From Candidatus Nomurabacteria bacterium (GTDB lineage Bacteria; Patescibacteriota; Minisyncoccia; Phycocordibacterales; UBA9973), in the NCBI GenBank assembly GCA_026395995.1, contig JAPLXQ010000010.1:218179-282178 (forward strand): a stretch of DNA of 64,000 nucleotides, in the 5' to 3' direction. This document shows, in pieces, positions 1,410 to 62,668 of this stretch. Each line of letters opens with the position of its first letter. Within the stretch, counting starts at the first letter, position 1. The notes below the pieces were generated by a model. That model ran no database searches. It had not been told where the DNA came from and saw only the letters and a list, made by a program, of their open reading frames with translations. A program made the translations under genes and the position numbers.

Positions 1410-1607
1410 ATGAGTAAAGAACAATATTTAAAAATCATCAATAAGGAATTGCAAAAGGTTAACAAGAAGATCGATGTAAAAATCGTAAAAGGTGAGCAAT
1501 ATTTTCGTGAAGCACGTGAGCATAAAATGCTTCTCAGAAAAGCTCGACAATTTAATGGACAAGGGTTTCTTGGTAGACTTTTTTCCTTTCAATTTTCCTT
1601 TCGTTAA
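1410..1607 (+). CDS. small hypothetical protein co-transcribed upstream of lexA
   Basis: 65-aa ORF between the SOS-box promoter and lexA; basic, no recognisable domain. Confidence 0.3.
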   Translation: MSKEQYLKIINKELQKVNKKIDVKIVKGEQYFREAREHKMLLRKARQFNGQGFLGRLFSFQFSFR

Positions 1608-1647
1608 GAGGAATAAAAGTAAAATAAAAACGTGATACAATAAATCT

Positions 1648-2217
1648 ATGCAAAACGATTACAAAGACAAACTAAATACTTTCTATTCAAAGAACAAAAG
1701 GATGCCGACATACACAGAAATGATGAAACTGTTTTCTTTTAAGTCCAAGAATGCCGTAGCCCGAGTCGTCGATAAAATGATCGAAGCCGGACTCGTAGCC
1801 AAAGACCACCTCGGTCGTTTAGTTCCCGATAAATTTTTAAATGAAGTAGTAATGCTCGGCTCTGTGAAGGCCGGATTTCCGAGTGATGTCGAGGAGCAAA
1901 CTTTTAATGATACAGTAAACCTAGATGATTTTTTAATAGAGAAAAAAGACTCCACATATATGCTCGAAGTGGATGGTGATTCTATGATCGACGCACATAT
2001 TAAAAATGGTGATATGGTTCTCGCTGAACGCACAAACAAAGCTAAAGATGGAGACATTGTGATAGCTGAAGTAGATGGCGAATTTACAATGAAATATTTT
2101 AAACAAAAAGGTGACAAGGTCTGGCTCGAACCAGCCAACAAAAATTTCAAACCAATCTATCCTAAATATGATTTAAAAGTCACAGCTATTGTAAAAGCTG
2201 TCATTAGAAAATACTAA
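1648..2217 (+). CDS. lexA: LexA repressor (S24 peptidase family)
   Basis: N-terminal winged HTH; C-terminal GDSM catalytic Ser motif and downstream Lys (MKYFKQKGDKVWLEP) typical of LexA autocleavage. Confidence 0.85.
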   Translation: MQNDYKDKLNTFYSKNKRMPTYTEMMKLFSFKSKNAVARVVDKMIEAGLVAKDHLGRLVPDKFLNEVVMLGSVKAGFPSDVEEQTFNDTVNLDDFLIEKKDSTYMLEVDGDSMIDAHIKNGDMVLAERTNKAKDGDIVIAEVDGEFTMKYFKQKGDKVWLEPANKNFKPIYPKYDLKVTAIVKAVIRKY

Positions 2218-2254
2218 ATTAGAAAATATTTGAATTTTCTGCTAGTATGACTAT

Positions 2255-2824
2255 ATGAAGATAACTTCTGCAAAATTCGTCAAAGGAGTCGTCGGTGACG
2301 ACGAAATCCTCGGCAATGGCATTCCACAGATTGCTTTTATTGGGCGTTCCAATGTCGGTAAATCAAGTGTGATAAACTCTCTTACTGGAGTAAAAGATTT
2401 AGCTCGCACGAGTTCTTTTCCAGGCCGTACCCAAGAAATAAATCTTTTTCTAATCAATACTAAATTTTACTTAGTAGACTTACCTGGGTATGGTTATGCA
2501 AAAATGTCTAATGCTGGACGAGATGCTATAGCAGAGCTTATCAGCTCATATTTTTTTCATTCGACGTATGTTCAAGAAAAAGTAGTATTGATTATCGATG
2601 CTGTCGTCGGTTTTACTGATAAAGATTTGGGCATGCTCCGAGCACTAGAAGAACATGATAAAAATATAATTATTGTTGCAAACAAAATAGATAAATTAAA
2701 AAAATCTGAATTAAATAAACAACTTAAAAAAATAGGGGATATGACAATGGGGCATATTATTATTCCTTATTCTGCTTTGAAAAAAATCGGAATCAAAGAA
2801 CTCTCCAAAGAAATGCTAAGCTAA
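2255..2824 (+). CDS. engB: ribosome biogenesis GTP-binding protein EngB/YsxC
   Basis: IAFIGRSNVGKSSVINSLTG P-loop and DLPGYGY motif. Confidence 0.85.
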   Translation: MKITSAKFVKGVVGDDEILGNGIPQIAFIGRSNVGKSSVINSLTGVKDLARTSSFPGRTQEINLFLINTKFYLVDLPGYGYAKMSNAGRDAIAELISSYFFHSTYVQEKVVLIIDAVVGFTDKDLGMLRALEEHDKNIIIVANKIDKLKKSELNKQLKKIGDMTMGHIIIPYSALKKIGIKELSKEMLS

Positions 2825-2921
2825 AAAGCCTTGCCCGGTCGCTTATAGCGACGGGGTTGACTTTTAAAGCCTAAACCTGTATAATGGGTTTAGAGTAATT
2901 TGTAAACAAAAACACAAAAAG

Positions 2922-3740
2922 ATGAAAAATATACTGATTTTATTACCGATTTTGGCTGTTACAGCCTTATTTTCATGTAAATCTAGCCAGCAAATAGTGG
3001 CTGAAAAAGAAAAAGTAGCCAAAGTGGACACCTTACTTATTCCTTTAAAGTTAGAGAGAATAAAGAAAGAATTTAATGTGGCAAATGAAGATCTTATAAA
3101 CAAACGCCACGTATTTAATGATGGAGAGATTCGTTTCTCTCGGCCGAATGAGAAAAAGTCTCAAGGAGTTGATGAGAATGATGATGCTTTGGTTCTGAGT
3201 ACTATAAATGAACCGGAGACAGTCATTGTCCCAAATCACACCAAGGGAGTAATTACTGGAATCAATGAAAAAACAAATACCATTTGGGTATGTTTTGATT
3301 CAATCAAAAAAATTACTTTACCTTTTGGCTTAGGGTCTGACGGAAGTTACTTTTTTAACATTAAGTCACCAGAATATGGTGATCGGACAATGTTTGTTTT
3401 TTATAATGATACAAAATATTCTGCAAGTGTATCATATAAAAAAGTATTATTACTTATTAGGGTTAAATACCCAAATAGAGTAAGTAAAAAAGAGATAACT
3501 GCGTCTGGCGTTGAAATATCTTCAGCTTCATCCTCTCCTGAACAGGATACGTACTATCCTGGTTTGAAAAAACAGGAGCCAAAAAAGGATGAACCAAAAA
3601 AGCCGGAAGCTAAATCCGACATTGATGAAATGTTAAAGGAGCTGCAAAAAAAGAAAGACGCAGAACCGGCAAAAAAAGCAGAAGAAAAAAAGCCAGAAGT
3701 TAAATCTGGCCCAAGAAGATCAAGACCGTCTCCTAAATAG
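2922..3740 (+). CDS. lipoprotein with Lys/Glu/Pro-rich low-complexity C-terminal tail
   Basis: Signal peptide with lipobox LFSC; C-terminus KKQEPKKDEPKKPEAKS... repeats. Confidence 0.6.
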   Translation: MKNILILLPILAVTALFSCKSSQQIVAEKEKVAKVDTLLIPLKLERIKKEFNVANEDLINKRHVFNDGEIRFSRPNEKKSQGVDENDDALVLSTINEPETVIVPNHTKGVITGINEKTNTIWVCFDSIKKITLPFGLGSDGSYFFNIKSPEYGDRTMFVFYNDTKYSASVSYKKVLLLIRVKYPNRVSKKEITASGVEISSASSSPEQDTYYPGLKKQEPKKDEPKKPEAKSDIDEMLKELQKKKDAEPAKKAEEKKPEVKSGPRRSRPSPK

Positions 3741-3798
3741 GGGGCGGTTTTTTTATATTTACTATCTATTTTTTAATGAATAGTTTATACTCTGATTA

Positions 3799-4578
3799 AT
3801 GAATCGAAATTACATAAAATTAAAGACTTTTTTATTGGGAATTATTTTAATAAGTCCTGCTGTTTTTCCTAATTTTAGTCTAGCAAAAGATAAAATAGAA
3901 ATTCTTCCAGCCAATGTCCCGATATTGGTATATCATAGTATTTCCATAGATAATAAAAATATAAGCTTAAAGAATCAGCAATTTTTTGTTGAACAAAAAA
4001 TGTTTGAAAAACAAATTCTTTATTTAAAAGAAAAGGGTTATGATATTATTTCCTTTGGTACCCTTGTAGATCATATTTCAAAATCTTTACCATTTGATAA
4101 AAAATCTGTTGTTTTTACTTTTGATGATGGAGATGAAAATCAGTATTTAAATGCTTTTCCAATTCTTAAAAAACATGGAGTCACAGCGACATTTTTTATC
4201 TACACAAATCCTATTGGACGTAATAAACATTTTATGACATGGGAGCAAGTAATAGAGCTCGATAAAGCAGGAATGACGATCGCCGATCATACCAAATATC
4301 ATCCTTTTTTGAGAAAAATTACAGACCCGAAGGTTTTAATTAATGAAATAGTAGATAGTAAAAATATTATAGAGAAAAAGCTAGGTAAAAAAGTTCTATT
4401 TTTTGCGTATCCATTTTATCAAACTAGCCCTGATTCTATTGCTTTATTGAAGAAATCTGGCTATACAGCTGCAAGAGGTGGTTATTATAAGAATTCAAAT
4501 ACCATAGACAGGCTTTTTGAAATGCGAGCAATGGAACCAAACAATAATTTTAAGCAATTTTCATCTATATTCAAATAA
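3799..4578 (+). CDS. polysaccharide deacetylase (NodB homology domain) family protein
   Basis: Signal peptide; VFTFDDGDENQY (TFDDG motif) and HTKYHP His motifs. Confidence 0.75.
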   Translation: MNRNYIKLKTFLLGIILISPAVFPNFSLAKDKIEILPANVPILVYHSISIDNKNISLKNQQFFVEQKMFEKQILYLKEKGYDIISFGTLVDHISKSLPFDKKSVVFTFDDGDENQYLNAFPILKKHGVTATFFIYTNPIGRNKHFMTWEQVIELDKAGMTIADHTKYHPFLRKITDPKVLINEIVDSKNIIEKKLGKKVLFFAYPFYQTSPDSIALLKKSGYTAARGGYYKNSNTIDRLFEMRAMEPNNNFKQFSSIFK

Positions 4579-8457: not shown

Positions 8458-8528
8458 TTGAGTATTTTACCATATAATGTCCTTGACACAATGGTTATTA
8501 TTGTTTTGTAATAAAAATTCACCTAACT

Positions 8529-8599
8529 CGCCCCACCCCGTCTGCTATGCATCCACCCCTCCTCATTTTTTACAAAAAAATGAGGAGGGGAATGGGGGT
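8529..8599. repeat. GC-rich palindromic mini-element (CT-arm/GA-arm family) in the lepB-pth divergent region
   Basis: ccccaccccg...cccctcctcattttttacaaaaaaatgaggaggggaatggggg: a 17-bp perfect inverted repeat flanked by CCCCACCCC/GGGGG, in a 30% GC background. Confidence 0.6.
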
Positions 8600-24739: not shown

Positions 24740-24788
24740 GCTTTTGGCTTGACTTTTTAGGCTTATTTATAAGGGTATTTTTACCTAA

Positions 24789-24813
24789 AATCCCCCTGAT
24801 AAGGGGGACAAAG
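24789..24813. repeat. small GC-rich palindrome (tccccc tgataa ggggga)
   Basis: Member or relative of the CT/GA-arm GC-rich element family; intergenic. Confidence 0.4.
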
Positions 24814-24826
24814 GGGGTTGTATTAG

Positions 24827-27450: not shown

Positions 27451-27483
27451 CGAATACCGTAAACCTTGTTTTCCACCTATCCC

Positions 27484-27516
27484 TCTCCTTTACTAAGGCG
27501 GGTGAGGTGCTTATTT
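27484..27516. repeat. GC-rich CT/GA-arm mini-element (intergenic copy)
   Basis: cctatccctctcctttactaaggcgggtgaggtg; closely related to the copy inside infB. Confidence 0.5.
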
Positions 27517-27847: not shown

Positions 27848-29347
27848 TTATTTTTGGACGACAGCGAAACACTCGATAATATCTCCGGCGACAATTTCTA
27901 TTTTTGATTCAATCATCATACCACACTCGTCACCTTCGAGAGCAGCACTCGTCTTTGTCTTGCCTTTTTCCAAGTTTACTATTTTTCCACGACCAATTTC
28001 AAAATCTCTTCTTATTATTTTGACTACTTGGTCTAAAATTATTTTACCTTCTGTTACTTTTCCTCCGACTATTTGTTTTTCTTTTGTACGAGAAAAAGCT
28101 TTTATTATTTTCAATTTACCAATAGTCTCTACTGTCTCTATTCTTGGGCGTCTCTTCTCCATCTCTTCTTTTAGCCAATCAGTCATTTTGTATATAATAT
28201 CAAAAGTAGAAAGTGTAATATTTAATTTGTCTGCTAGGTCGATGGCATTTTTATCAGCTTTCATATTAAAAGCGATAATGATAGCATTCTCTCCAGCAAT
28301 TGCATTTTTCACATCAGATTCAGAGATTGGTCCGATACCTCTTTGGACTATTCTAAATTCAGCACTTTCACTGTTTATTTTACTTATTTCTTTTTCAATA
28401 GCTTCGAGTGATCCACCAGCATCAGCTTTTAAGATAATAGGAATCATTTTTTTATCTGATTTTACCCCCTCTCCTTTATAAGGAGAGGGCTGGGGTGAGG
28501 TTCTTTCTGAATTTTTTTCTAAATCTTTTTTGTTCTCAAAAGCCATAAATTCACTACCGACTTTTGGTACTTTGTCGAAGCCTACGAGGCGGACAGGGGA
28601 TGAAAAGGTCGATTCACCTATTACTTTTCCTAAAAAGTTTTCCATAATACGTGTACCACAAGAAGCATCTTCTACTGCTACTATCATTCCTTTTTTCAGA
28701 CTTCCGTTTTTAATTATCAAAGTCGCTTGAATACCTCTTTTAGAATCCAAATTTGCTTCAAGTACAAAGCCACTAGCAGGTAGAGACGTGTCTCCGGTAA
28801 AGCTTTCCATTTCAGCTAAGACTAAAATCAAAGAAAGCAATTCATCGACACCAGTGCCGACTTTTGCAGATACCAATACAAATGGAGTTTGTCCTCCAAA
28901 GTTTTCAAGATATATTTCGTGTTCAGCTAAGTTTATTTTTGTACGTTCAATATCAGCTCCTGGTTTATCAATTTTATTGATAGCGACGATACAAGGTGTA
29001 TTACTTTCTACGATTGTTTTATAAGCTTCGATGGTTTGAGGTTTTACTCCGTCTTCAGCTGAAACCATAAGAATTGCAATGTCTGCGATTTTAGCCCCAC
29101 GTTCACGCATTTTAGAAAAAGCTTCATGTCCAGGAGTATCGAGAAAAGTTATTTTTTTATCTTTCCCATTTTCGTCTTTATGAATTACTTCATAAGCAGA
29201 AATGTGTTGAGTTATACCTCCAGCTTCACGGTCGACAATATTTGTCTTGCGAATATAATCTAGCAAGGTTGATTTACCGTGGTCGATATGACCCATCACT
29301 GCGACCACTGGAGGTCTCTCTATTAGATTGTTTTTTTTATTTTCCAT
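27848..29347 (-). CDS. infB: translation initiation factor IF-2 (short form)
   Basis: G domain [30 protein letters not shown], domain II, and C-terminal IF2 domains. Contains an in-frame GC-rich palindromic insertion (28458-28498). Confidence 0.9.
28458..28498. repeat. GC-rich palindromic mini-element inserted in-frame within infB
   Basis: accccctctcctttataaggagagggctggggtgagg; on the coding strand it translates to [13 protein letters not shown] in the inter-domain linker. Confidence 0.6.
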
Positions 29348-54232: not shown

Positions 54233-54237
54233 TATTG

Positions 54238-54308
54238 CTGCCAGACCTGGACTCGAACCAAGATAGTCTCCTTCAGAGGGAGATGTCCTACCATTAGACG
54301 ATCTGGCA
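54238..54308 (-). tRNA. tRNA-Gln (anticodon CTG)
   Basis: Sense tgccagatcgtctaatggtaggacatctccctctgaaggagactatcttggttcgagtccaggtctggcag; U1-A72, loop ctCTGaa. Confidence 0.65.
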
Positions 54309-54430
54309 ATGTTTATATTCTGTCTTTTAAAAACCTTCTTCCAAATCGATTCTTTAAATCTTCTGTATACCCTATATAAAGATTTTCATCTTTTGAACTT
54401 TTTAAAACATAAGTGTAATACATCTTGTTT

Positions 54431-54495
54431 ATGTCCTACCATTACCCGCCCGCAACGCCTGAGCTTGCGATGGCGGGCGGGGACGATCTGGCAAT
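54431..54495. repeat. partial duplicate of the tRNA-Gln 5-prime region, itself split by a 38-bp GC-rich palindrome
   Basis: atgtcctaccatta + cccgcccgcaacgcctgagcttgcgatggcgggcgggg + acgatctggcaat reproduces 54283-54310 of the tRNA, with the palindrome replacing a single G. Confidence 0.6.
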
Positions 54496-54566
54496 ACTTT
54501 AACAGTAGCTTAAAAAAGCTAATTATTCAACTTTATTTTATTATTGTGCTATTATAGTACAATAAA

Positions 54567-58826: not shown

Positions 58827-60665
58827 ATGGATTTAAAGAAAATTAGAAATTTTAGTATCATAGCACACATTGACCACGGGAAATCTACCTTGGCTGATAG
58901 AATGCTCGAAATAACTCATACGATTGAGACACGTAAAATGCGTGACCAGGTTCTTGATTCTATGGAGCTTGAACGAGAAAGAGGTATTACTATCAAAATG
59001 CAACCAGTGCGTATGGAATATAAGATGCACCCCCTCCCAACCTCCCCCTTAGCGAAGGGGGAGGAGAACACCACATACACTTTAAACCTTATAGATACTC
59101 CAGGACATATAGACTTTTCCTATGAAGTTTCTCGTGCTTTAAAGGCCGTAGAAGGGTCTATTTTGCTCGTTGACTCAACTCAGGGGGTCCAGGCTCAAAC
59201 ACTTACTACACTCGCTATGGCTCGTGAGGGAGGGCTTAAAATCATCCCTGTACTCTCAAAAATAGACTCACCACTTTCTCGTGTAGATGATGTCAAAGAT
59301 GAAGTTATAAAGCTTTTAGATTGTGATCCAGATGAGATACTTCTCGTTTCTGGACGTACAGGCGAAGGTGTAGAAAATCTTTTAAATGAAGTCATAAAAA
59401 GAGTGCCACCTCCAGTCGAAACTTTTATAGACACCACTAGTTGCCGTGCACTTATTTTTGATTTTAAATATTCAAATCACAAGGGTGTGATTGTTTATGT
59501 GCGAGTTCTTGATGGAAAAATTTCCAAAAATGAAAATTTACTTTTTTCTGTTTCTAAAGAAAAATTTACCTCACTCGAAGTTGGAACATTTTCTCCAGAA
59601 GAAACTCCTTGTGAATTTTTAAAAGCAGGTGAGACAGGATATATTGTGACTGGTATTAAAAAGCCTGGTATTGCGAGCGTCGGAGATACTATTACATTAT
59701 TGAAAAATCCATTGCCAGAACTTCCTGGATATATGCAACCTCGCCCTGTCGTCTGGGCTTCAGTTTTCCCTGAAGATGCAGATCAATTTAACGATTTGAA
59801 AGCAGCCCTCGGCAAACTTCGTCTTTCTGATTCATCTTTTTCTTACGAAGAAGAGTCTAGTGGATCACTCGGACGTGGTTTTCGTTGTGGTTTTCTTGGT
59901 ATGCTTCATTTGGAAATTGTTATTGAAAGATTGAAAAGAGAATTTAATTTGGCCTTAGTGGTGACTACTCCATCTATTACTTATGAAGTGACTTTAAATA
60001 ATGGTAAAAAAGAAAAAATATATTCACCATATTTTTTCCCTGAAGAGGGAAACATAAAAGAAGTTTTTGAGCCTTGGGTTTTTGTAAAAATTATTACCCC
60101 ATCTATTTATCTTGGTCCAATAATGCAATTGCTTTTTGTGCATGAAGCAGAAGTGGGTGAGACAGAAAGTTTTGGAGACAATCGCTCATCAATATCACTC
60201 AAAATGCCACTACGTGAATTGATGCGAAACTTTTTTGATGAATTGAAATCTGTCTCTTCTGGTTATGCTTCTATTTCCTATGAAATTGCTGAAATGCGTG
60301 AAGCCAATGTGACTCGTTTAGACTTGCTTGTGGCTGAAGAAATTATCCCAGCTTTCTCTCGAGTTGTATCTAGAAAAAGAGTTCAAGAAGATGCTGAAGA
60401 AGCCGTAGAAAAATTACATAAACTTTTACCAAGGCAAATGTTTGCGACAAAAATCCAAGGTAAAGCCTTGGGTAAAATTATCTCCTCAAAAACCACTCAA
60501 GCTTTTATGAAAGATGTGACACAGCATATGTATGGAGGAGATATTACTCGTAAAATGAAGCTTCGAGAAAAACAAAAGAAAGGTAAAAAGAAGATGAAAG
60601 AGCGTGGACGCGTAAATATACCTCAAGAGGTTTTTCTTAAGATGATGAGAAGTGGGGAAAATTAA
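58827..60665 (+). CDS. lepA: elongation factor 4 (LepA)
   Basis: [21 protein letters not shown], LepA-specific C-terminal domain. Carries an in-frame GC-rich palindromic insertion (59028-59072) in the G domain. Confidence 0.9.
   Translation: [612 protein letters not shown]
59028..59072. repeat. GC-rich palindromic mini-element inserted in-frame within lepA
   Basis: gcaccccctcccaacctcccccttagcgaagggggaggagaac; stem ctccccctt/aagggggag; encodes [14 protein letters not shown] where LepA orthologs have only a few residues. Confidence 0.6.
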
Positions 60666-61540: not shown

Positions 61541-62167
61541 ATGAGAGGTATACAAACTTCTAATAAAATAGTTCAAGAAATTAAAAAACTTAGATCTGAA
61601 GGGGATAGTATTCTTGAGATATCAAAAATAGTTGGTAAAAGTAAGTCTATTGTTTCAAAATACGTTAAAGATATAAAAATTCTTCCACAGTATGAATATC
61701 TTCTAAAAGAAAAACAAGGAGGTAGTAAGTCGCGTTCTTTAAAAGAGTGGAAGGATTCAGAGATAAAATCAAAAAAAATAATTAATACTCTTTCTAGTAA
61801 AGAAAAATTATTAATTCTAGCATGTTTATATTGGGGAGAAGGAACTAAAACTGAACTTAATATTATAAATAGTGATCCAGAAATGCTTCGGGTTTTTATA
61901 ATTTCTTTAAAAGAATTAGGAATAGATAATTCTAAAATAAAAGCAACAATAAGAATTTATGAAGATTTAAAAGATAACGATATTATTAATTTTTGGTCAA
62001 AGGCTATTGATCTTCCAAAAGAATGTTTTAAAGGTATTAATTTATTAAAAGGTAAAAAAGTTGGTAAATTAAAACATGGTATGTGTAGAATAAGGGTTGA
62101 AAAAAGTAAAGATTACTTTAAACTAATTATGTCTATAATAGAAAGAATTAAAGACTTGTCCTTATAG
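61541..62167 (+). CDS. HTH-domain protein with putative single-motif LAGLIDADG-like endonuclease domain (paralog B)
   Basis: HTH (KKLRSEGDSILEISKIVGKSKSIVSKYV); LILACLYWGEGTKTELNIINSDPEMLRVFIISLKELGI resembles the LAGLIDADG helix plus following beta-sheet. The stop overlaps tRNA-Arg by 10 nt. Confidence 0.4.
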   Translation: MRGIQTSNKIVQEIKKLRSEGDSILEISKIVGKSKSIVSKYVKDIKILPQYEYLLKEKQGGSKSRSLKEWKDSEIKSKKIINTLSSKEKLLILACLYWGEGTKTELNIINSDPEMLRVFIISLKELGIDNSKIKATIRIYEDLKDNDIINFWSKAIDLPKECFKGINLLKGKKVGKLKHGMCRIRVEKSKDYFKLIMSIIERIKDLSL

Positions 62168-62595: not shown

Positions 62596-62668
62596 GCCAA
62601 GATAGCTCAGTTGGTAGAGCGCTCCCCTGAAGAGGGAGATGTCCCCAGTTCAAATCTGGGTCTTGGCA
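62596..62668 (+). tRNA. tRNA-Phe (anticodon GAA)
   Basis: Acceptor gccaaga/tcttggc, loop ctGAAga. Confidence 0.8.

Follow-up and report, generated by a model that had tools for sequence, protein, structure and literature searches.

The lepA gene of an AT-rich Candidatus Nomurabacteria (Patescibacteria) genome carries a short, GC-rich palindrome in frame within a loop of its product, elongation factor 4 (EF4). The window analyzed here is the whole stretch of 64,000 nucleotides from contig JAPLXQ010000010.1 (assembly GCA_026395995.1) in which this gene lies. The most probable account of the palindrome, to which we give roughly two chances in three, is that it is a solo end, without an open reading frame (ORF), of a family of cassettes built around DUF559 (PF04480), a Vsr-like PD-(D/E)XK endonuclease, and that it is carried by the host protein as a passenger loop. 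The repeated unit behind this proposal measures about 36 nt and consists of a C-rich arm, a spacer of 2-4 nt and a GC-rich hairpin with only pyrimidines in its 5' arm and only purines in its 3' arm. In many bacteria a small DUF559 ORF has one such unit on either side, the pair forming inverted repeats, and the resulting cassette often sits in frame in the surface loop of a conserved gene. Throughout, L and P numbers are our own handles for the loci, contigs and proteins that were compared.

The insertion in lepA and its place in the protein

The palindromic sequence that the first-pass annotation had singled out is present at 59028-59072 and lies in frame in lepA. Its stem is perfect, as had been described, although the length given (9 bp) falls one short of the actual 10 bp (CCTCCCCCTT/AAGGGGGAGG). 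At its 9-bp length the pattern is unique within the window and absent from all of 100 dinucleotide-preserving shuffles, and GC content reaches 70% in a 55-nt stretch of lepA here, against a window mean of about 32%. Folded as DNA the hairpin has a free energy of -12 kcal/mol (z -4.2), and folded as RNA one of -21 kcal/mol (z -2.4). When it was examined as a possible intrinsic terminator, the sequence following the hairpin (AGAACACCACA) had no T tail and the terminator scan made no call. Additionally, the covariance models of Rfam 15 detected only tRNAs in the window and no family for the unit. The insert contains no stop codon and encodes a 14-residue peptide after ...VRMEYKM.

Homologues of this LepA that are up to 97% identical carry the Pfam domains GTP_EFTU, EFG_C and LepA_C. 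The closest of them, with 94-97% identity (L006, L001/L002, L007, and L008), have a loop of 10 residues, EFKSGGENYV/T, between VRM and LNLIDTPGH, whereas the same loop in the window LepA has 22. The first-pass annotation had allowed for the case that close relatives all carry a segment of similar length at this position; as their loops are less than half as long, this is not what the alignments contain. On the evidence of these alignments the palindrome is a true in-frame insertion and a recent arrival. Its borders are blurred by local changes (KSGGEN to KM...ENTT), the loop having been partly rewritten and not cleanly interrupted. The window LepA can be aligned with the solved EF4 structures 5imq, 4w2e, and 3cb4, and in the alignment with 5imq and 4w2e the insert falls between ...VRVTYRAK and DGEEYVFHLIDTPGH, which we take to be the point in the G domain where the beta-hairpin lying between switch I and the G3 motif (DTPGH) makes its turn. 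To the suggested question of whether this is a surface loop the AlphaFold model could add little: its predicted local distance difference test score (pLDDT) was 54 overall and 25-40 in the G domain, and it was used only for the strand-coil-strand pattern around residues 61-88. Judged from sequence, the insert is most likely read through as a tolerated loop of proline and serine followed by lysine, glycine, and glutamate, making it a passenger and not an adaptation.

The same loop is a recurrent landing site. The canonical length of 10 residues is kept in 59 of 84 related lepA loci; about 25 have an insert at exactly the same point, in most cases a palindromic one. In a neighbor-joining tree the insert-bearing genes are scattered and have empty sisters, the pairs being the window gene and L006, L040 and L036, L003 and L050, and L004 and L084. 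All inserts at this main loop keep the frame and contain no stops, and it is therefore argued that they are translated rather than removed; across lineages they are unrelated in sequence and in length. The loop can also hold a whole protein domain. The 760-aa LepA P0052 (L216, 660-1200) carries a PF13366 (PDDEXK_3, GxxExxY) nuclease domain in frame at this very position, bounded by inverted repeats of its own (AACGCAGACTGA/TCAGTCTGCGTT). Weaker indel sites exist in LepA near residues 135, 200, 395, and 451, where the inserts are mostly palindromes of several unrelated families.

As a separate observation, the sites near window residues 395 (L030, L044, L061, and L077) and 200 (L047, L064, and L044) hold further in-frame palindrome families without relation to one another, examples being ACCCGCACACT...AGTGTGCGGGT and TTTCGGACGTTGGAC...GTCCAACGTCCGAAA.

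The unit family and its link with DUF559 genes

A second unit of the same kind lies in infB, the gene for IF2, elsewhere in the window. The lepA and infB units have one architecture, namely a C-rich arm, a 2-nt spacer, and a GC-rich hairpin that runs from pyrimidine to purine. The view of the first-pass annotation that one element family had entered both genes is borne out by this shared build, and so is the claim of a common orientation, with the arm 5' on the coding strand in both. A common reading frame had also been proposed, but the CACCCC motif begins at codon position 1 in lepA but one position later, at codon position 2, in infB, with a one-base offset between the two hairpins. Likewise, the two peptides do have a similar flavor but they are not nearly identical; the likeness is compositional only, because a run of C and T translates to P, S, and L and a run of A and G to K, G, and E. 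The idea that two essential translation-GTPase genes had each received an insertion holds in full for lepA, with its net gain of 12 codons (36 nt), whereas the infB unit, which encodes a 12-residue peptide, brings no net gain in length and replaces about 18 residues of the variable IF2 linker. The two window copies represent two sub-types, with arms CCCCCTCC in lepA and CCTCACCCC in infB.

The infB unit is matched by the nhmmer model of the lepA long form described below with an E value of 3.6e-6. An orthologous unit is found in L217, where 33 of the 36 bases of the unit are conserved against 80% nucleotide identity for the gene, and the stem now has a mismatch. The unit also occurs in independent assemblies (P0163, P0164, and L217), P0163 being an IF2 from a Candidatus Nomurabacteria metagenome-assembled genome (MAG) that is 100% identical to the window protein, and it is missing from two other relatives at 89-90% protein identity (P0166 is an IF2 relative with the empty site). 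Taken together, these comparisons indicate that the infB copy is older than the lepA copy.

Both window copies correspond to parts of longer elements. A long form of about 56 nt occupies the main lepA loop in L003, L004, L032, L055, and L070, and its reverse complement, with 1 mismatch, occupies that of L040. Its layout is ACCTCACCCCCAG-CCCCTCTCCT..AGGAGAGGG-TGGCCAAAGGCCG-GGTGAGGT, with two inverse arms around a pyrimidine/purine hairpin and a small GCC-AAA-GGC hairpin, and the infB segment equals the arm-plus-hairpin part of this first type. A second type of the same build, TACCCCCACCCTC-CTCCCCCTT-GGT-AAGGGGGAG-GTGCCAAAGGCG-GAGGGGGTA, is present at the second LepA site of L074, L061, and L048. 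The window lepA insert equals the arm-plus-hairpin part of this second type, its stem arms being identical to those of L074 and its profile match reaching only E 0.02-0.04. The same hairpin arms recur upstream of the DUF559 ORF of L185 and in the viral contigs L088-L091, and arms akin to the lepA arm stand beside the hairpins that flank DUF559 in L156 and L164 (ACCCCCTCCCTA), as well as in L074 (TACCCCCACCCTC) and L089 (GACCCCCTCCAA). In 1.48 Mb of sequence from relatives, the pyrimidine arm comes first in 26 of 27 perfect GC-rich homopurine/homopyrimidine hairpins, 22 of which lie inside long ORFs. The notion that pyrimidine and purine arms are specially free of stops was considered and rejected: unit frames are open in 78% of cases and those of random window segments in 50%, but the figure for shuffled units is 75%, and the excess is thus an effect of composition.

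The link to DUF559, which like the occurrence of the unit far beyond this phylum had not been noticed in the first-pass annotation, comes from the borders of the cassettes. DUF559-annotated genes underlie some of the plasmid BLAST matches to the unit. A plasmid of Synechocystis sp. B12 has a 148-aa DUF559 ORF that splits pglX of a bacteriophage exclusion (BREX) system, with a unit at each end and the arms facing outward (CCTCACCCC-GG-CCCTCTCCC...GGAGAGGG at one end and CCTCCC-AGGAGAGGGG-CTAGA-GGTGAGGT at the other), and in Pseudanabaena a DUF559 domain lies in frame within a 1621-aa protein between units whose arms face inward. Closer to the window, leuS of L077 (Paceibacterota; 1451-4291) is one ORF of 946 aa. 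Pfam assigns residues 266-368 of this leucyl-tRNA synthetase (LeuRS), which separate its catalytic domain from its editing domain, to DUF559 (E 2.7e-30). The ends of this cassette read CAACCCCTCCC-TAA-CCCTCCCC-GAA-GGAGAGGG and CCCTCTCC-TTT-GGGGAGGG-TTT-GGGAGGGGTT. In L063 a DUF559 ORF is followed by a unit near-identical to the infB unit of the window.

The association holds in a wider sample of 80 metagenomic DUF559 loci, which is biased toward relatives of the LeuRS-borne DUF559 because the alignment was narrowed after a first one had proved too divergent. Perfect GC-rich, pyrimidine-first hairpins are present no more than 150 nt from the ORF on its upstream side in 56 of 77 loci, on its downstream side in 52 of 73, and on both in 39 of 70. 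Hairpin density near the ORF is 4.3 per kb, 74-fold above the 0.058 per kb found farther out. These flanking hairpins are true inverted repeats, since their two loops are reverse complements of each other, and most have a C-rich or G-rich arm on one side, pointing inward in 47 units and outward in 27. When a profile built only from these 74 flank units was run against the window, its best two matches were the infB unit (E 6.5e-6) and the lepA unit (a marginal E of 0.029), both arm-first on the coding strand. The profile is too short to serve for a census, with only 5 matches at E < 0.01 in the 1.48 Mb of relatives.

Of the 80 DUF559 ORFs in this sample, 19 are embedded in frame, the open frame continuing for 100 aa or more to either side. 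LeuRS is the host protein of many, with one site occupied in organisms apparently as far apart as Patescibacteria and Bacteroidota. Most relatives have this LeuRS loop, which lies between NWIGxSxG and TTRPDT, in an empty state (14-20 aa). A solo long form is present there in L082 (1202-1288), and a full in-frame DUF559 cassette in L077 and in many metagenomic leuS genes, including L135-L148, L170, L171, and Bacteroidota-like ones. In the leuS of L135 and in P0125 a unit is nested inside the DUF559 ORF itself (...RRNNPSLTLPEGEGKNSKSFHFRRQH...), and units therefore also invade their presumed parent gene. Unrelated domains are inserted in frame in other leuS genes, with a 194-aa hydrolase-like segment in L084 and a NUDIX domain in L004.

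As judged from sequence matches, the distribution of the unit extends far outside this phylum. BLAST matches in plasmids of cyanobacteria, Bacteroidota, and Proteobacteria come from the cyanobacteria Pseudanabaena, Planktothrix, Leptolyngbya, Synechocystis, Nostoc, and Tolypothrix, and from Prevotella, Hymenobacter, Cupriavidus, Azospirillum, and others. The infB-type arm-plus-hairpin motif is present in 38 stretches of viral contigs with 34-61% GC, in up to five copies within 7 kb, and the lepA-type hairpin and arm in viral contigs of 54-60% GC, for example L089 (GACCCCCTCCAACCTCCCCCTTCGCAAGGGGGAGG). Dense arrays of infB-type copies, all on the same strand, were observed in two contigs classed as viral, L094 having 5 within 7.3 kb and L127 having 4 within 10 kb; a DUF559 ORF was not detected in either contig, and Rfam returned nothing at E <= 1 for these multi-copy loci.

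Table 1. Window features connected with the two units and possible further copies.
Feature	Position	Strand	Remarks
lepA (elongation factor 4)	58827..60665	+	612-aa ORF; host gene of the palindromic insert
Rearranged lepA loop segment	59025..59072	+	Net +36 nt (+12 codons) compared with relatives; DNA and protein alignments with L001, L002, L006, L007, L008
C-rich arm CACCCCCTCCC	59028..59038	+	Followed by spacer AA (59039-59040); resembles arms beside DUF559-flanking hairpins
Perfect hairpin CCTCCCCCTT-AGCG-AAGGGGGAGG	59041..59064	+	Pyrimidine arm leads; 10-bp stem, CCTCCCCCTT 59041-59050, loop AGCG 59051-59054, AAGGGGGAGG 59055-59064
infB (IF2)	27848..29347	-	499 aa; host of the second unit
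infB unit	28467..28501	-	Arm ACCTCACCCC 28501-28492, spacer AG, hairpin CCCTCTCCTT-ATA-AAGGAGAGGG 28489-28467
Possible degenerate intergenic copy CACCTCACCCGCCTTAGTAAAGGAGAGGGATAGGTG	27471..27510	-	Read directly; weak nhmmer match (E 4.8); low confidence
Possible related intergenic hairpin CAACCCCCTTTG-TCCCCCT-TATC-AGGGGGA-TTTT	24786..24820	-	Terminator-like; found by neither profile; low confidence

A further candidate match at 62622 was rejected, being a tRNA anticodon stem and not a unit. Three other features of the window are recorded here in their own right. At 8519-8590 two CACCCC motifs lie in a C-rich stretch, after which comes a perfect 16-bp hairpin (CCCCTCCTCATTTTTT/AAAAAATGAGGAGGGG) that looks terminator-like. 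At 54433-54498, immediately upstream of tRNA-Gln (minus strand, 54237-54308), there is a palindrome of 78% GC (CCCGCCCGC...GCGGGCGGG), which folds as RNA at -30.9 kcal/mol (z -3.2). An 11-nt direct repeat, GATCTGGCAAT (54300-54310 and 54485-54495), brackets this palindrome; it has no Rfam match and contains no second tRNA, and might be a small insertion at the tRNA end. Finally, a 208-aa ORF between tRNA genes (61541-62167, plus strand) has a LAGLIDADG-like LYWGEG motif and no Pfam match, and could encode a divergent homing endonuclease.

Origin of the lepA insert

[quoted passage not shown] Their spread would be started by the endonuclease and the transfer completed by recombinational repair from a donor copy. 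Such a route would explain why target sequence is replaced and not interrupted, as seen in the rewritten lepA loop and in the 18 or so IF2 linker residues exchanged for the infB unit, and why target-site duplications are not observed.

Several points weigh against this account. With either profile the lepA unit scores marginally (E 0.02-0.04), most of the match coming from the hairpin and the 11-nt arm, and no DUF559 homologue was found within the 64-kb window, which is the reason for calling the lepA copy a solo unit. Neither target-site duplication, nor an excision footprint, nor presence/absence polymorphism was seen at the sites compared. We infer the mobility of solo units from their distribution, and the cutting of these sequences by DUF559 is putative. 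The reverse copy in L040 could have been flipped where it stood, by inversion through the terminal repeats, instead of being a second insertion, while recurrence at the LepA loop could reflect recombination of lepA alleles across very conserved flanks, or simply tolerance of the loop, and not targeting. The direction of descent may also run either way, with solo units derived from cassettes or serving as the target of the ORF.

In the main rival account, which we regard as unlikely, the units would be an independent family of small palindromic repeats, spreading by a route of their own and comparable with repetitive extragenic palindromic (REP) sequences or cyanobacterial small dispersed repeats, DUF559 ORFs would be secondary homing endonuclease genes that target them and insert there, and the lepA copy would never have had an ORF. 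Units without an ORF far outnumber those with one, as DUF559 accompanies none of the 38 viral stretches and only 2 DUF559 genes occur in the 1.48 Mb of relatives. The two arrangements, with 47 arms inside and 27 outside, are what would be expected if the ORF had landed at different points of a pre-existing unit pair, and the nesting of units within the DUF559 ORF of L135 and P0125 fits as well. However, this explanation offers no mechanism by which the units spread, while the loops of the flanking hairpins are exact reverse complements, as is typical of the ends of one element, and distant hosts have the same cassette at a single LeuRS site, a pattern suggestive of homing by the cassette as a whole.

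Three remaining explanations are each unlikely. That the insert is kept for a function of its own, whether as a lineage-specific extension of the LepA G-domain hairpin or as an mRNA hairpin (-21 kcal/mol) that would conceal a Shine-Dalgarno-like GGAGG and set the pace of translation from switch I to G3, would suit the perfect stem, the preserved frame, and the stable RNA. It could also draw on the older infB unit: after divergence from L217, 33 of its 36 nt are conserved as against 80% identity in the gene, but this difference is not significant. Relatives with 94-97% identity have a normal LepA without the insert, different lineages have inserts at this loop that share neither sequence nor length while their sister taxa are empty, and the same unit is also found in unrelated genes and in intergenic DNA, so that retention for function appears improbable. 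Local formation of the palindrome without any mobile element, through template switching during replication or through quasi-palindrome correction, would account for the palindromic nature and varied sequences of nearly all indels in these LepA genes, and for a target loop that appears rewritten and not cleanly interrupted. It is nevertheless very improbable, given that arm and hairpin match nearly base for base in unrelated genomes (L089, GACCCCCTCCAACCTCCCCCTTCGCAAGGGGGAGG; also L074, L156, L164, and L185) and that the AT-rich flanks could template none of a sequence with 70% GC. An assembly or binning artefact of this MAG, finally, hardly deserves credence. The exact 612-aa LepA does lack a record in the indexed collection, and exact look-ups of the window LepA, the neighboring ABC ATPase, and IF2 P0163 returned a sole match, L215, which ends short of the lepA insert. 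Against an artefact, the reading frame is intact, the insert has no stops and occupies precisely a loop that permits it, dozens of independent assemblies contain equivalent inserts, and the companion unit in infB is present in P0163, P0164, and L217.

A broader reading goes beyond the lepA copy, and we hold it only tentatively, at slightly less than an even chance. DUF559 ORFs with their arm-plus-hairpin inverted repeats may constitute an undescribed class of selfish elements that sit in frame in the loops of essential genes, have no splicing domain, use the expression of the host gene, and range across bacterial phyla and viruses. Their orphan ends would then be a general source of P/S- and G/E-rich insertions in LepA, IF2, and LeuRS, including those of candidate-phyla-radiation bacteria. 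A literature search of incomplete coverage, which leaves room for a prior description, returned no account of DUF559 cassettes with these ends nor of such inserts in Patescibacteria. If this reading is true, DUF559, a family very common in annotations and so far without an assigned role, would gain a testable one as the nuclease of an intein-like or homing-like element that leaves sequence in the host protein. It would also give an origin for GC-rich "PSP...GEG" peptides and palindromes across annotations of cyanobacteria, Bacteroidota, and candidate phyla, and a mechanism by which new segments appear in the loops of highly conserved translation proteins. Marker indels in lepA, infB, and leuS could then be horizontally acquired and recurrent, which would make them poor phylogenetic characters.

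Comparison with known systems

Short GC-rich palindromes have been encountered in other settings. The GC clusters of yeast and fungal mitochondria are GC-rich mini-palindromes that spread in AT-rich genomes, are sometimes found in coding regions, and can be nested. The small dispersed repeats of cyanobacteria, reportedly described by Elhai et al. in 2008, are said to be similar GC-rich mini-palindromes, sometimes coding and nested. Our units are likened to both by description only, and we know of no link of either to DUF559.

Among bacterial elements, the Rickettsia palindromic elements (RPEs) are in-frame palindromes in unrelated, often essential genes of a small AT-rich genome (PMC10969869). 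RPEs and the units share in-frame insertion in protein-coding genes and a tolerated added peptide. They differ in that RPEs are about 100-150 bp long, restricted to Rickettsia, and without a known linked nuclease gene, whereas the unit measures 36 nt (about 56 in the long form), has 70% GC, crosses phyla, and flanks DUF559. The units are set apart from RPEs here by size and taxon, and they are probably unrelated to them in sequence.

REP sequences, their hairpin-forming doublets (REPINs), and the REP-associated tyrosine transposases (RAYTs) offer a parallel in organization, as a short hairpin with a conserved non-palindromic head exists in many ORF-less copies, few of which flank the enzyme gene (PMC3116915). 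The units resemble this system in combining hairpin and head, in their many orphans, and in the few copies that flank a single enzyme gene. REP heads are given as GTAG or CGTC and REPs as extragenic (PMC3733652), whereas the unit is often intragenic, as both window copies are, and its head is a C-rich arm of 9-11 nt (CACCCCCTCCC or ACCTCACCCC). The partner enzymes differ too, an HUH (IS200-like) tyrosine transposase for REPs and DUF559 (PF04480), a PD-(D/E)XK Vsr-like nuclease, for the units. MITEs provide another partial model: the ORF-less long forms share their terminal inverted arms with the ends of an ORF-bearing relative, here the DUF559 cassettes. Unlike MITEs, the units have no target-site duplication when compared with empty sites, the window copies have one arm only (long forms elsewhere have both), and DUF559 is not a recognized or proven transposase.

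Inteins and homing genes resemble the full cassette in their niche, as they too occupy conserved sites of essential genes in frame and are patchily distributed. The cassettes have no Hint splicing domain, however: in the LeuRS of L077 only DUF559 stands between the synthetase domains, and the 12-codon insert of lepA is too small to hold one. The inserted sequence therefore stays in the protein. The clade of Vsr and DUF559 is already known to include a homing endonuclease, I-Bth0305I, and enzymes of "fractured genes" (PMC3424549; PMC2677866). Yet the Vsr-like homing enzymes described to date are free-standing between split inteins or reside inside group I introns, whereas the DUF559 cassettes are read through in frame and end in palindromes.

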